A DNA stretch of 44,980 nt, taken from assembly GCA_018899555.1 (NCBI GenBank), contig JAHIHZ010000023.1:1-44980 (forward strand), given 5' to 3'. How positions within the stretch are numbered: the first letter of the stretch is position 1; each line of letters opens with the position of its first letter. The position numbers and the translations under genes were made by a program. The notes under the pieces were generated by a model. It was not told the DNA's origin, did no database searches, and saw only the letters and a list, made by a program, of their open reading frames with translations. This document shows positions 3,189 through 8,335 of the stretch, piece after piece. The stretch is from Patescibacteria group bacterium. GTDB taxonomy: Bacteria > Patescibacteriota > Minisyncoccia > Phycocordibacterales > 21-14-all-36-13.

Positions 3189-3263
3189 TCACTTTTATTC
3201 TTCAACTTTAAAACCTCTCAACGAGGTTTTAAAGAGGAGTGATAGATTTTAATCTCTTAAACT

Positions 3264-3698
3264 ATGCTGATAGGAGAATATACACACACAATAGATCCTA
3301 AAAAAAGACTTTCACTTCCAACAAAGTTTCGCAAAGAGTTGGGGAAGAAAGTCGTCCTTACTCATGGGTTAGATAATTGTATTTTTATTTATACCACATC
3401 CAATTGGAAAAATTTTACAAAAAAATTATCAGAACTTTCAATGGGGCAATCTGATTCCAGAAGTTTTAATAGGTTTATGCTCGCGGGGGCGAGAGAGGCA
3501 GAAATAGATGGAGCCGGAAGAATATTAATTCCAGATTTTTTGAAAGATTTTGCTAATTTGAAAAACAAAGTCGTATTGATAGGTGTCCGCGATAGGGTTG
3601 AAATTTGGAATGATAAAGCATGGGCAGAATACAAAAAAGTAATTGAAAAACAGGCAGATACATTTGCAGAGAAATTGGGAGATATAGGAATGATCTGA
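3264..3698 (+). CDS. mraZ: Transcriptional regulator MraZ
   Basis: The 144-aa product MLIGEYTHTIDPKKRLSLPTKFRKEL...RILIPDFLKDFANL has the duplicated SpoVT/AbrB-like MraZ halves. The gene is the first of the dcw-type run mraZ-rsmH-ftsL-ftsI. Confidence 0.95.
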   Translation: MLIGEYTHTIDPKKRLSLPTKFRKELGKKVVLTHGLDNCIFIYTTSNWKNFTKKLSELSMGQSDSRSFNRFMLAGAREAEIDGAGRILIPDFLKDFANLKNKVVLIGVRDRVEIWNDKAWAEYKKVIEKQADTFAEKLGDIGMI

Positions 3699-5208: not shown

Positions 5209-6916
5209 TAGTTTGTTTAGAATAAGAATAATCTCCTTTTTTATTTTGGGGTTTTTTCTTGTTCTGGTTATAAGTTTATACTTTATTCAAATTGTTAATG
5301 GAGATGATTATTCTATAAAAGCAGACAAACAATATTTGCGCCCCAATGAAAATGTTTTTGATAGGGGCTCTATTTTTTTCCAAGATAAAAATGGAATTAA
5401 TGTGTCTGCCGCAACCTTAAAATTAGGTTTCATTCTTGCAATAAATCCCAAGTTAATAGACCCTTCTAAAGAACAAGAGGTCTATGAAAAATTATCTAAA
5501 TTAGTTGAAATAGATAAGGGTGATTATTTTAAAAAAGTAGTCAAAAAAACCGACCCCTATGAAGAAATAGGACAACATTTAACACCAGAAATTGCTCAAA
5601 AAATAACTGAATTAAAATTAATCGGGGTGAATGTTTATAAGGAAAGATGGAGGTTTTATCCTGGGGATAATCTGGCAAGTAATGTGATAGGTTTTATAGG
5701 ATTTCAAGGTGACGATTTAGCCGGTAGATATGGAATAGAAAATTATTACGAAAATATTTTATCTCGTAAAGATAAAAATGTTTATGTTAATTTTTTTGCA
5801 GAAATTTTTTCAGATGTGAGCGCAACGCTTGGTGATGATAACCAAAAAAGGGAAGGGAATATAGTTACGACGATAGAGCCGATGGTAGAAGGGTTTTTTG
5901 AAAAAAAACTAGAAGAAATAAATGAAAAATGGAATTCAAGAAAAACACTCGGTGTGATAATGAATCCGAAAAATGGAGAAATTTATGCAATGGGTATTTA
6001 CCCAAATTTTAATTTGAATGATTTTTCTAATGAAAAAGATGTATCAATTTTTTCAAATCCAATTGTTGAAAATGTTTTTGAAATGGGCTCTATAATGAAA
6101 CCACTTACTATGGCGTCTGGGCTAGACGCTGGTGTTGTAACGGTGGATACGGAATATGATGATAAAGGATTTTTGGTTTTGAATGGAGCAAAGATTTCAA
6201 ATTATGACGGAAAAGGTAGGGGGAAGGTTAATATGCAAGAAGTTTTAAATCAATCTTTAAACACGGGGGCTTCTTTTGTTGTAAGTAAATTGGGAAATAA
6301 AAAATTTGCAGAGTATATGAAAAATTTTGGTCTCGGTGAAGAAACGGGGATTGATTTACCGAATGAATCTGTTGGGATTATAGACAACCTGAACAGCCCG
6401 AGAGATTTGGAATATGCAACGGCATCTTTCGGACAAGGAATAGCTATAAGCCCCATAACAACAGTGAGGGCACTTTCTGCTTTATCTAATGGAGGATTAT
6501 TGGTAATGCCCCACATTGTTAAAAAGATAGAATATAAAAATGGGCTTACAAAAACAGTTCGTGGGGAAACAGAAAAAAGAGTAATAAAAAAAGAAACATC
6601 CGACGAAATTACAAGGATGCTTGTAGAAGTAGTTGATTCGGCGCTTTTGGGAGGGACGGTTAAATTAGAAAGATATAGTATCGCGGCAAAAACAGGTACG
6701 GCGCAAATACCTGATTCTGAAAATGGTGGATATTATAAAGATAGATACCTGCACTCATTTTTTGGGTATTTTCCGGCTTATGACCCAAAATTTATTATAT
6801 TCTTAATGACGATAGAACCAAAAGAAATTGGGTTTGCTTCGCATACTTTAACACAGCCATTTATTGATACTGTTAAATTTTTAATAAATTATTATGAGAT
6901 TCCCCCGGACCGATAA
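5195..6916 (+). CDS. ftsI: Class B penicillin-binding protein / peptidoglycan D,D-transpeptidase FtsI
   Basis: There is an N-terminal TM helix, SxxK (SIMK), SxN (SLN) and KTG (AKTGTA). The gene is in the dcw position after ftsL. Confidence 0.9.
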   Translation: MEESNSLFRIRIISFFILGFFLVLVISLYFIQIVNGDDYSIKADKQYLRPNENVFDRGSIFFQDKNGINVSAATLKLGFILAINPKLIDPSKEQEVYEKLSKLVEIDKGDYFKKVVKKTDPYEEIGQHLTPEIAQKITELKLIGVNVYKERWRFYPGDNLASNVIGFIGFQGDDLAGRYGIENYYENILSRKDKNVYVNFFAEIFSDVSATLGDDNQKREGNIVTTIEPMVEGFFEKKLEEINEKWNSRKTLGVIMNPKNGEIYAMGIYPNFNLNDFSNEKDVSIFSNPIVENVFEMGSIMKPLTMASGLDAGVVTVDTEYDDKGFLVLNGAKISNYDGKGRGKVNMQEVLNQSLNTGASFVVSKLGNKKFAEYMKNFGLGEETGIDLPNESVGIIDNLNSPRDLEYATASFGQGIAISPITTVRALSALSNGGLLVMPHIVKKIEYKNGLTKTVRGETEKRVIKKETSDEITRMLVEVVDSALLGGTVKLERYSIAAKTGTAQIPDSENGGYYKDRYLHSFFGYFPAYDPKFIIFLMTIEPKEIGFASHTLTQPFIDTVKFLINYYEIPPDR

Positions 6917-7000
6917 AAGCAATAAGGCGATAAAGCAAGAAAACAAAAAATCAAGAAAGTAAAATAATAATTTAAAATTAGGAAATTAAAATTCTTTTTG

Positions 7001-7120
7001 TTCTCTTTGTTGTACCGTTCGTACGAACCGCCCACTAGAAAAGTGAAGCAGTTCACTTTTTATTTTTTTTTATTTTCTCTCTATTCTCTTTGTTGTACCG
7101 TTCGTACGAACCGCCCACTA
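7001..7120. repeat. Perfect 37-bp direct repeat (7001-7037 and 7084-7120)
   Basis: ttctctttgttgtaccgttcgtacgaaccgcccacta occurs twice, 83 bp apart. It contains the 12-bp palindrome gttcgtacgaac. Confidence 0.9.
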
Positions 7121-7374
7121 AAAAATAAATAAATTTACTTTTTCTTAACGCTTTCTTTTTAAAAACTTTGTTTTTAAAAAACCCGGGGTTTTAAATTACT
7201 TCGCAATATATAAAACCCTCACAAAGCTAAAAAAGTAAATAAATTTACTTTTTCTTAACGCTTTCTTTTTAAAAACTTTGTTTTTAAAAAACCCGGGGTT
7301 TTAAATTACTTCGCAATATATAAAACCCTCACAAAGCTAAAAAAGTAAATAAATTTACTTTTTCTTAACGCTTT
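7119..7374. repeat. 110-bp tandem repeat, about 2.3 copies, abutting the 3' end of tRNA-Glu
   Basis: The unit aaaaaagtaaataaatttactttttcttaacgctttctttttaaaaactttgtttttaaaaaacccggggttttaaattacttcgcaatatataaaaccctcacaaagct starts at about 7119 and 7229, with a partial copy at 7339-7374. Each unit carries the hairpin aaaaagtaaa/tttacttttt. Confidence 0.9.
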
Positions 7375-7375
7375 G

Positions 7376-7447
7376 TGACCCCACAGAGAATTGAACTCTG
7401 ATTTCCGCCTTGAGAAGGCGATGTCCTAACCGTTAGACGATAGGGCC
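7376..7447 (-). tRNA. tRNA-Glu (anticodon CUC), no encoded CCA
   Basis: The minus strand reads GGCCCTA TC GTCT AACGGTT AGGAC A TCGCC TTCTCAA GGCGG AAAT CAGAG TTCAATT CTCTG TGGGGTC A. This is a full cloverleaf with GG in the D-loop and a TTCAA T-loop. Its architecture closely parallels E. coli tRNA-Glu. Confidence 0.85.
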
Positions 7448-7683
7448 AATAATTTTTCTATAGCCGATCTACTTTTCCATTTTTTTATTTGACTTTCACG
7501 CTTTCGAGCTTCTGATAATGTGTCATATTTTTCAATATGCATCAGTGTCCATGGTCTGCTATTTTTAGTACTTTTTACTTTGCCAGAATTATGATAATTA
7601 ATTCTACTTATTATGCTATTCGTTGCTCCTATATAGTATTTACCATTTTTTACAGATTTTAATATGTAAATATAAAACATCAT
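7426..7683 (-). CDS. Small GIY-YIG nuclease family protein (COG2827/UPF0213-like)
   Basis: MMFYIYILKSVKNGKYYIGATNSIISRINYHNSGKVKSTKNSRPWTLMHIEKY.....ARKRESQIKKWKSR carries the GIY..YIG, R..H and E motifs. The last 7 codons and the TAG stop lie inside the tRNA-Glu 5' region. Confidence 0.85.
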   Translation of the reverse strand: MMFYIYILKSVKNGKYYIGATNSIISRINYHNSGKVKSTKNSRPWTLMHIEKYDTLSEARKRESQIKKWKSRSAIEKLLALSSNG

Positions 7684-7781
7684 TTAAGCGTTAGTCCCGA
7701 TTTTGATTCATCAAAATCGAGGATCCTCGATTTTCTAGTTCAAATTGAATTTGGAATTAGAAAATCGGGAACGATGGGGCC
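7437..7781 (-). mobile_element. About 334-bp GIY-YIG insertion bounded by an 11-bp direct repeat of the tRNA-Glu 5' end
   Basis: On the minus strand, GGCCCCATCGT (7781-7771) and GGCCCTATCGT (7447-7437) match at 10 of 11 positions. The upstream copy pairs better with the acceptor 3' strand TGGGGTC. Between them lie a multi-palindrome leader and the GIY-YIG ORF. Confidence 0.6.
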
Positions 7782-7996
7782 GTAGTAAAAACAAAAAAGC
7801 AAGAAAGCAAGAAAACAACCAACAAAAACAATAAAATTATACATTTTTTAAGTTTTTTATAAAGTAAAAATAAAACTTCGTTTTGTAAGATTTTAGCATA
7901 GCTTAAAGAATTTTAAGAAAAGTAACAATTTCCTCAAACGACACGAAAATTGAAGATTTTTGCGTCTTCTTGTTTATTTTTTAAAAATCCTGTAAA

Positions 7997-8335
7997 ATGT
8001 TATCTAATATGAATGAATTCGCGGTTATAAAAACAGGCGGGAAGCAGTATAAGGTCTCTAAAGGAGACATTATTAATATTGAAAAAATAAAGAGCGAAAA
8101 AGAGCCAAAAATTGGTGACAAAATAATGTTTGATAAGGTTCTAATAGTTGATAATGGTAAAGATACAACCTTGGGCAACCCTTACATAGATGGGGCAAAG
8201 GTAGTGGGTATCTTAACAGATGAAGGGAGGGGGAAAAAAATAACAGTCATAAGATATAAGGCAAAAAGTAGATATTTTAAAAAGAAAGGGCACAGGCAGC
8301 CATTTTTTAAAGTAAAAATAGAATCTATTAAATAA
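7997..8335 (+). CDS. rplU: 50S ribosomal protein L21 (the start may be the in-frame ATG at 8009)
   Basis: The N-terminus FAVIKTGGKQYKVSKGDIINIEKI and the C-terminus GHRQPFFKVKIESI are typical of L21. Confidence 0.95.
   Translation: MLSNMNEFAVIKTGGKQYKVSKGDIINIEKIKSEKEPKIGDKIMFDKVLIVDNGKDTTLGNPYIDGAKVVGILTDEGRGKKITVIRYKAKSRYFKKKGHRQPFFKVKIESIK

Follow-up and report, generated by a model that had tools for sequence, protein, structure and literature searches.

The window analysed here, 44,980 nucleotides (nt) of contig JAHIHZ010000023.1 from a Patescibacteria group bacterium (assembly GCA_018899555.1), carries on its minus strand a tRNA-Glu(CTC) gene whose 5' end is shared with the tail of a small GIY-YIG nuclease gene. 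Upstream lie a palindromic hairpin module and a broken copy of the tRNA 5' end. We think it probable that a selfish element which invades tRNA genes, and moves by nuclease-made breaks and homology-guided copying, has left a streamlined copy of itself here. The complete element would be a hairpin-bounded unit of ~380-410 nt, with the ends TCCCGA...TCGGGA and a central palindrome TCGAGGA|TCCTCGA, which carries a minimal SLX1/UPF0213-type GIY-YIG gene of ~80 amino acids (aa) and a whole spare tRNA gene. Such a unit would sit precisely, without target duplication, in a resident tRNA of the same anticodon, in tRNA-Glu at the sites 22|23 or 11|12 (numbers denote the tRNA nucleotides on either side). 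The resident tRNA would be split and dead, and the spare tRNA would keep the cell viable and make the element hard to lose. What the window holds would be a remnant of this arrangement, comprising the host promoter, a 21-nt resident stub with a module at 11|12 that has no open reading frame (ORF), the nuclease ORF and a functional tRNA-Glu(CTC). Comparative anatomy shows a link to tRNA genes, split halves that fit one another, cargo tRNAs of distinct sequence, nesting, ORF-less derivatives, and filled and empty alleles; from these we infer, rather than demonstrate, how the element moves.

The complete tRNA-Glu, placed at 7447-7376 by a first-pass annotation made from the letters of this DNA, is found there by both ARAGORN, for which it is the sole tRNA in the whole window, and the Rfam tRNA covariance model (58.8 bits against a gathering score of 29, E=7e-12). 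The orphan copy of its first 11 nt described by the same annotation is also present: GGCCCCATCGT (7781-7771) equals tRNA nt 1-11 with one change and lies 334 nt upstream of GGCCCTATCGT (7447-7437). Its length had been underestimated, as the tRNA copy resumes right after a 76-nt module and continues as nt 12-21; the full orphan is therefore a stub of 21 nt, divided cleanly at 11|12. A chance origin of the 11-mer was rejected: a match with at most one mismatch within 400 nt is expected ~0.003 times, and the continuation as nt 12-21 and the family pattern described below also speak against it. Matches to TCCCGATTT with one mismatch occur in the window at chance level.

The 85-aa GIY-YIG ORF runs into the tRNA as first annotated, its final 22 nt being tRNA nt 1-22 and its TAG stop tRNA nt 20-22. 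It probably starts at the second ATG (7680), giving 84 aa, and the promoter-like site upstream (Table 1) probably drives the stub, ORF and tRNA as a single transcript. No further nuclease copy was found in the window, where tblastn recovers the ORF itself alone and the central palindrome is single.

Table 1. Features of the tRNA-Glu locus, listed in the order of transcription.
Feature	Position	Strand	Remarks
Promoter-like site	7836..7863	-	TTTATA, 16 nt, TATAAT, with TG before it; 10/12 positions in consensus scan
T-rich spacer, 54 nt	7782..7835	-	From -10 box to tRNA stub; absent in L082 and L085 (alignment)
Resident tRNA-Glu stub, nt 1-11, GGCCCCATCGT	7771..7781	-	
ORF-less two-hairpin module, 76 nt	7695..7770	-	Hairpin 1 at 7770-7724, hairpin 2 at 7723-7695
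Stub continuation, tRNA nt 12-21, CTAACGCTTA	7685..7694	-	9/10 matching; followed by one base, then ATG
GIY-YIG ORF, 85 aa	7426..7683	-	Pfam PF01541 match; tail and stop in tRNA
Complete tRNA-Glu(CTC)	7376..7447	-	ARAGORN 7447..7375; Rfam 7447..7376

Relatives of the nuclease were collected with a 12-sequence alignment as query in a scan of one GTDB genome per species, which gave 584 relatives; the family loci analysed (numbered, like the other loci below, with the prefix L) are the best 80 of these. They come from many Patescibacteria (the candidate phyla radiation, CPR), Bacteroidota, Ignavibacteria, Melioribacteraceae and a few other groups. In a large protein collection 242 relatives are detectable, mostly of 80-85 aa and several of them ending in ALSSNG or ALSSIG, the tail encoded by the tRNA, and a phage collection gave four weak matches of ~40% identity; NCBIfam holds no family matching the nuclease. 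An all-against-all blastn of the 80 loci found them too diverged for fine mapping of the element ends.

A same-strand tRNA abuts the ORF in 65 of the 80 loci, ~50 times the background tRNA density of the same loci (0.017 per 300 bp). It begins less than 250 nt past the ORF end in 51 loci, often overlapping the ORF, and ends 0-70 nt ahead of the ATG in 14 further loci. The linked tRNAs have many identities: Glu, Ser, Ala, Gly, Gln, Arg, Tyr, Cys, Val, Ile and Leu. Of the 51 loci with the tRNA downstream, 39 have a 5' fragment of it (11-52 nt) as a stub shortly ahead of the ORF, with z values as high as 33 relative to shuffled sequence, and 13-16 loci have the matching 3' half as well. In the 14 loci with an upstream tRNA, the ORF is always followed by a duplicate of the tRNA 3' part. 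Insertion positions vary and include 11|12, 22|23, 17|18 and 35|36. Both the tRNA adjacency and the flanking tRNA duplications that the first-pass annotation had proposed to look for are therefore found across the family, and this pattern supports its central idea that the small GIY-YIG gene is part of a mobile element directed at tRNA genes, after whose insertion a functional tRNA remains. Its observation that the orphan pairs better than the intact 5' end with the acceptor 3' strand stands for the window itself (one G-U against a G-C) and does not generalise: the orphan pairs worse in 16 of the 17 loci where the two differ from each other. The poorer fit speaks for intact tRNAs that, in general, are carried whole.

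At locus L019 a 406-nt unit interrupts a resident tRNA-Glu(CTC) between nt 22 and 23. Host nt 1-22 (2948-2969) are followed by TCCCGATTTT, a leader, the ORF and a second complete tRNA-Glu(CTC) at 3234-3305; after this cargo tRNA come a spacer, AAAATCGAGGA|TCCGCGA...TCGGGA and host nt 23-72 (3376-3425). Host and cargo tRNA are identical at 55 of 72 positions and show compensatory differences in the acceptor, anticodon and T stems, indicating that they are two different genes sharing an anticodon. Deletion of the unit in silico from L019 or L011 yields an ARAGORN-valid tRNA-Glu. The host halves at L011 and L005 have complementary acceptor strands, unlike those of the carried tRNA, and host and cargo anticodons are identical in 7/7 loci checked. 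The GIY-YIG gene is the sole ORF of complete units. An element bringing just a tRNA 5' end, as first proposed, does not describe these complete relatives, which carry the whole tRNA and have the resident split into flanking halves. The cargo tRNAs of L019 and L011 directly follow or overlap the ORF, as in the window, and by analogy with the complete relatives the tRNA at 7376-7447 may be an element-borne replacement ('cargo') or a cargo/host chimera.

Several variants of the complete unit were found. L034 is nested in the manner of a Russian doll, the carried tRNA of one element having been invaded by a second element with its own tRNA. In the tRNA-Ala elements L018, L020 and L050, inserted at 34-36 in the anticodon, the ORF occupies the loop of hairpin 1 and the cargo tRNA the loop of hairpin 2. 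Units that carry a tRNA and no ORF occur at L013 and L020, and an ORF-bearing unit with the same ends is also found at non-tRNA sites (L003, L013). A 64-nt module alone, containing neither ORF nor carried tRNA, splits a full-length tRNA-Glu(TTC) at 22|23 in L027 (4050-4330, minus strand), and an intact tRNA-Glu(TTC) beside a GIY-YIG ORF lies ~800 nt off on the opposite strand. In the Bacteroidota-type loci L048, L065 and L067, ORF and pseudo-tRNA units form tandem arrays; in pseudo-tRNAs of loci of this type a TCCCG...CGGGA hairpin replaces the anticodon arm. The ORF stop codon of L067 and L052 falls within a hairpin loop.

The stubs are mostly interrupted by modules with no tRNA base lost or duplicated, and the junctions were precise in 17 strict tests. 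The modules have a conserved frame, TCCCGA-stem/loop-TCGAGGA / TCCTCGA-stem/loop-TCGGGA, and the terminal inverted repeats TCCCGA...TCGGGA recur in dozens of them. In 445 kb of family loci the central palindrome TCGAGGA|TCCTCGA has 54 matches, 50 of them no more than 400 nt from the ORF and the remaining four at tRNAs or in another long hairpin; control loci gave 2 weak matches in 311 kb. As to the inner stems, 41 of 52 distinct hairpins are paired at all six tested positions, with 32 different 5' hexamers among them, and mismatched inner-stem partners, used as a control, pair at 3.4 of 6 positions. Modules are nested in one another at L063, L045 and L034.

The window module has the same frame and lies, by the junction test, precisely between stub nt 11 and 12. 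Its four CGATTTT/AAAATCG arms (7770-7695) and the 22-nt palindrome AAAATCGAGGATCCTCGATTTT at 7734-7713 are present as the first-pass annotation had described them. The central 14-mer of AAAATCGAGGATCCTCGATTTT occurs once in the window, against 0.02 matches expected, and the module folds into two tandem hairpins with dG -21.2 kcal/mol (z = -5.3 against shuffles). The arms had been taken for a ~75-nt leader of the element; they form instead a separate ORF-less module, of a type seen at many loci and positions. Hairpin 2 of the window recurs with at most one change in L002, L005, L007, L011, L071 and L082, loci whose ORFs are 53-61% identical to that of the window (88% in L082).

A second family of mini-palindromes (CCTGCCTGCCGGCAGGCAGG and relatives) lies upstream of ORFs at L005 (~2977-2997), L030, L041, L029 and L071, and palindromes of this type occupy the same tRNA positions, e.g. 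11|12, in CPR and Bacteroidota stubs. A long imperfect inverted repeat at L003 (250-560), GATTGAAAACATTATTGCCT...AGGCAATAATGTTTTCAATC, has an ORF-less module at its apex. No credible Rfam family was found for this repeat, which looks like a structured RNA of no recognised family or another palindromic element.

Filled and empty alleles were compared among relatives of the window. By the neighbouring L21 gene the closest are L083, L084 and L085 (84-87% identity), and in all three the tRNA-Glu(CTC) is uninterrupted and there is no GIY-YIG gene; the uninterrupted allele that the first-pass annotation had recommended seeking is thus found in L085. The nearest relative of the window ORF is that of L082, at 88% identity. 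L082 and L085 share the upstream gene (106 aa), a terminator and the promoter TGTATAAT, and alignment places the window promoter sequence ahead of both the filled site of L082 and the uninterrupted tRNA-Glu of L085. In L085 the promoter is followed by GGCCTCATCGTCTAATGG..., and in L082 by GGCCTCATCGT, the module, CTAACTGTTA, the ORF and a tRNA starting GGCCTTATCGT. Measured from the promoter, the L082 stub starts where nt 1 of the L085 tRNA does, and so keeps the original 5' end in both place and sequence. The orphan of the window is present in L082 as well, with the same layout of the stub continuation. L081 (GCA_018900715.1) is the same organism as the window, identical across the aligned region and uninformative. 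P0012, seen on 27 contigs that all share one genomic context, is likewise uninformative on mobility. Three outcomes named in advance as telling against such an element (a GIY-YIG family without tRNA association and flanking duplications, an ORF-tRNA overlap in relatives without the upstream orphan, and a downstream sequence that fails tRNA covariance models) were all checked, and none was observed.

The surroundings of the tRNA-Glu gene differ among these relatives. Between L21 and tRNA-Glu lies a conserved gene of 104-106 aa without a Pfam domain (L085 239-559, L082 151-465, L083/L084 ~1850-2160), which is absent from window positions 7782-7996. At L083 (1640-1790) and L084 (1480-1670) the tRNA-Glu adjoins the PBP gene in the opposite orientation, which points to an inversion or other rearrangement between the relatives. 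L084 (1592-1788) also has, after its uninterrupted tRNA-Glu, an insert of ~105 nt and then a 19-nt duplicate of the tRNA 3' end, ATTCCCCGTGAGGTCACAT, which looks like the footprint of another element targeting the tRNA 3' end.

The window ORF matches the Pfam GIY-YIG family PF01541 over residues 2-72 with 63.2 bits against a cut-off of 22.6 (E=2.8e-17). The catalytic residues Y6, Y17, G19, R27, H31, N32 and E63 are invariant across 50 homologs. Profile searches against the PDB gave 1ZG2 (2.5e-14), 1YWL (1.6e-13) and SLX1 (4e-07). An AlphaFold model (pLDDT 92.7) was compared by Foldseek, which returned 1ZG2 and SLX1 with probability 1.0, I-TevI with ~0.4 and UvrC with 0.15; the TM score to SLX1 was 0.61-0.67. 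By profile and predicted fold, the nuclease is SLX1/UPF0213-like and not I-TevI-like. SLX1 is a structure-specific nuclease for branched and flap DNA, which fits an enzyme acting at hairpin bases. Between the window and L082 the ORF has dS 0.35 and dN/dS 0.16, indicating that it has been retained by purifying selection in its truncated arrangement.

In the mechanism we propose, the nuclease would recognise hairpin or branched DNA, both the TCC(N)CGA/TCGGGA hairpin bases and the stem-loops of tRNA genes, and would break a naive tRNA gene. Repair of the break would use a filled allele as template and so copy the element in, the two tRNA halves, conserved across species, providing the homology arms. 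The halves may be likened to exons in intron homing, but function would be restored by the spare gene and not by splicing. In the window, the right end and the resident 3' half would have been lost by deletion or by recombination of the cargo tRNA with the resident 3' half. As the stop codon lies within the tRNA, a given transcript should be either cleaved by RNase P or translated in full, not both, which would hold nuclease expression low. Destruction of the resident tRNA would make the host dependent on the tRNA of the element, in a manner resembling addiction.

A number of points weigh against this proposal. The window has neither a right end nor a 3' stub by local alignment (z = -0.3) and Rfam, and the descent of its copy from a complete element is suggested by analogy with relatives. 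The filled/empty pair L082/L085 consists of diverged genomes and not of members of one population. The order in Bacteroidota and Ignavibacteria, intact tRNA, ORF and then a 3' stub with a hairpin in place of the anticodon arm, is only partly explained, and at L015 and L030 the duplicated stretch does not stop at the 3' end of the tRNA and also takes in terminator sequence and the start codon of the ORF. The protein is a catalytic domain alone, with no sequence-specific DNA-binding domain and no room for one; cleavage by its 85 aa is a prediction from sequence, and the junctions show no consensus target beyond G|S. The cargo tRNA should itself be a target, which the nested copies fit, but a carrier cell would then need some way of avoiding self-cutting. 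Finally, any novelty rests on negative searches of a literature that was incompletely covered: a full-text search of such incomplete coverage found no account of small GIY-YIG elements that are associated with tRNA genes or split them, and the element family is apparently undescribed.

The same element might instead be a hairpin-ended transposon, with the GIY-YIG protein as excision and insertion enzyme at the TCCCGA/TCGGGA bases and with stem-loops as targets, so that no homology would be needed. We regard this as possible but rather unlikely. Its defined and conserved ends, precise junctions and lack of target duplication are what a transposon would show, and same-ended copies stand at the non-tRNA sites L003 and L013 and in the apex of the long hairpin of L003. 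ORF-less derivatives resembling miniature inverted-repeat transposable elements (MITEs) are nested in L063, L045 and L034, hairpin 2 is near-identical across lineages whose ORFs share only ~55-65% identity, and the nuclease folds like a structure-specific enzyme. However, we know of no GIY-YIG enzyme that catalyses strand transfer, so that such a transposon would depend on host repair as well. The anticodon match of host and cargo in 7/7 loci fits homology-guided homing better, and the single module in the 45-kb window shows no MITE-like burst in this genome.

Taken literally, the first-pass annotation had a 334-nt cassette, consisting of the leader, the ORF and the first 11 nt of the tRNA, enter the gene after nt 11, with nt 12-72 original, and the filled/empty alignment formally fits such an insertion. 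The orphan GGCCCCA also forms one more Watson-Crick pair with TGGGGTC than does the resident GGCCCTA. This model nevertheless leaves stub nt 12-21 beyond the module unexplained. The supposed leader is a separable module found at many positions, complete relatives have whole cargo tRNAs and resident 3' halves, and the orphan fits worse in 16 of 17 loci, including L163 and L075, which have the same architecture as the window. We therefore consider the model improbable.

It is very improbable that the locus is non-mobile, the ORF being a host gene that shares transcripts with tRNAs (and serves, say, a tRNA-related function or repair) and the stubs leftovers of local tandem duplication. Purifying selection on the ORF, its sharing of the tRNA promoter and the fixation of P0012 in one context (23 contigs read, from many samples) would suit a host gene. 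Against this, the gene is missing at the same tRNA in the closest relatives of the window, the linked tRNAs are of many identities, and there are nested copies, non-tRNA insertions and ORF-less derivatives; the compensatory differences between resident and intact tRNAs mean that these are not recent local duplicates. Least credible of all is that the modules, with or without an ORF, act like introns that are removed from the precursor tRNA to leave the interrupted genes functional: they are precisely inserted and strongly structured, and L027 has a full-length tRNA-Glu(TTC) interrupted by a 64-nt module only, at 22|23, but Rfam shows no group I or other intron (an E-value scan of 6900-8100 gave the tRNA only above threshold), 76 nt is too small for a known ribozyme, the bulge-helix-bulge splicing endonuclease is to our knowledge absent from bacteria, most stubs are too truncated to yield a tRNA, and the interrupted tRNAs examined all adjoin an intact copy of the same isoacceptor, which would be needless if the interruption were harmless.

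Returning to the reading of a tRNA-invading selfish element, several known systems share parts of its design. Seg proteins are ~200 aa or more in length, have a DNA-binding domain and are located between genes. T4 SegB, in the T4 tRNA gene cluster (PMC2330249), resembles the present case as a selfish GIY-YIG gene among tRNA genes. T4-like Seg genes (PMC2330249) also share break-induced copying with flanks, which for the present element is our inference, and presence/absence polymorphism between relatives. Unlike the element described here, Seg genes do not split the tRNA and come without a spare target copy or a hairpin scaffold. In contrast to Seg and I-TevI-type enzymes, the protein here is a bare catalytic domain of ~80 aa, structurally nearer to SLX1/UPF0213. 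UPF0213 proteins (BH0048, PDB 1ZG2; EF2693, PDB 1YWL) and SLX1 have the same fold and catalytic motifs as the window protein. SLX1 differs in being a repair enzyme with an extra RING domain and the partner SLX4. For UPF0213 proteins we know of no assigned role and no reported tRNA linkage.

Group I introns with homing ORFs in bacterial tRNA genes (PMC3984707) are alike in having a structured scaffold with a nuclease ORF in a loop, and in precise insertion into a conserved RNA gene whose halves may serve as homology arms and whose function is kept. Here it is a second, complete cargo tRNA that restores function, not self-splicing, no ribozyme was detected, and D-arm sites (11|12, 22|23) are used too, not the anticodon loop alone. 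A group I intron would interrupt the sole gene copy and have joined exons, whereas the downstream tRNA of the window is complete and the upstream stub measures 21 nt.

Integrase-borne prophages and islands likewise target tRNA genes and carry a tRNA piece that regenerates an intact gene. They use tyrosine or serine recombinases, usually duplicate the 3' part of the tRNA and are kilobases long. The unit here is ~0.4 kb, carries a whole tRNA and leaves the resident as two dead halves; in the window it is the tRNA 5' end that is duplicated, and local alignment found no 3' duplicate. No recombinase-like ORF was noted near the locus in the ORF list, the ORFs of which were not searched against protein families. 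The palindromic hairpin ends, precise insertion without target-site duplication, ORF-less derivatives and nesting recall IS200/IS605, REP/RAYT and MITEs. The IS200/IS605 and REP/RAYT systems, however, employ HUH (Y1) transposases with a short-motif target, in contrast to the GIY-YIG protein only, the tRNA-gene target and the carried tRNA seen here. Compared with MITEs and classical insertion sequences, the unit has the terminal inverted repeats and lacks both the target-site duplication and a DDE or HUH transposase.

In none of the nearest known systems does a GIY-YIG domain standing alone occur together with a palindromic scaffold, a split tRNA gene and a tRNA carried by the element, and there is a substantial chance that the element deserves the name of a new class. 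Tentatively, and with the odds somewhat against so broad a statement, such a class might be widespread in Patescibacteria (CPR), Bacteroidota and Ignavibacteria: a bare 80-aa SLX1-like nuclease would insert, via hairpin or cruciform DNA, a palindromic scaffold with a spare tRNA that rescues the host and creates dependence, leaving pseudo-tRNA fragments and mini-palindromes behind. If true, this would be a third route by which a selfish nuclease can live in an essential conserved gene, replacing the gene by a spare copy, whereas introns repair the RNA and inteins the protein. CPR bacteria are thought to have minimal tRNA sets, and in them the addiction effect would be especially strong. The element would also explain unannotated pseudo-tRNA pieces and palindromes beside tRNA genes in many uncultured lineages, give a biological context to orphan UPF0213-like GIY-YIG proteins, offer a route for horizontal exchange of tRNA genes and provide a very small nuclease with structure-defined targets.

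Within the window, further repeats surround the tRNA cassette. On the minus strand, the tRNA is immediately followed at its 3' side by a 110-nt unit (7120-7374) that is tandemly repeated 2.3 times with 99-100% identity; the array starts 1-2 nt past the tRNA 3' end, and each unit has the palindromes AAAAAGTAAATTTATTTACTTTTT and AAAACCCCGGGTTTT, which are terminator-like. The L081 contig terminates within this array. Between the PBP gene and the array, a 51-nt direct repeat (6992-7042 and 7075-7125, 92% identical) holds the palindrome GGTTCGTACGAACC. A-rich stretches of 56 nt at 6914-6969, after the PBP gene, and at 7786-7841 are 77% alike and flank the whole tRNA cassette, and the T-rich spacer ahead of the stub resembles the first of them.

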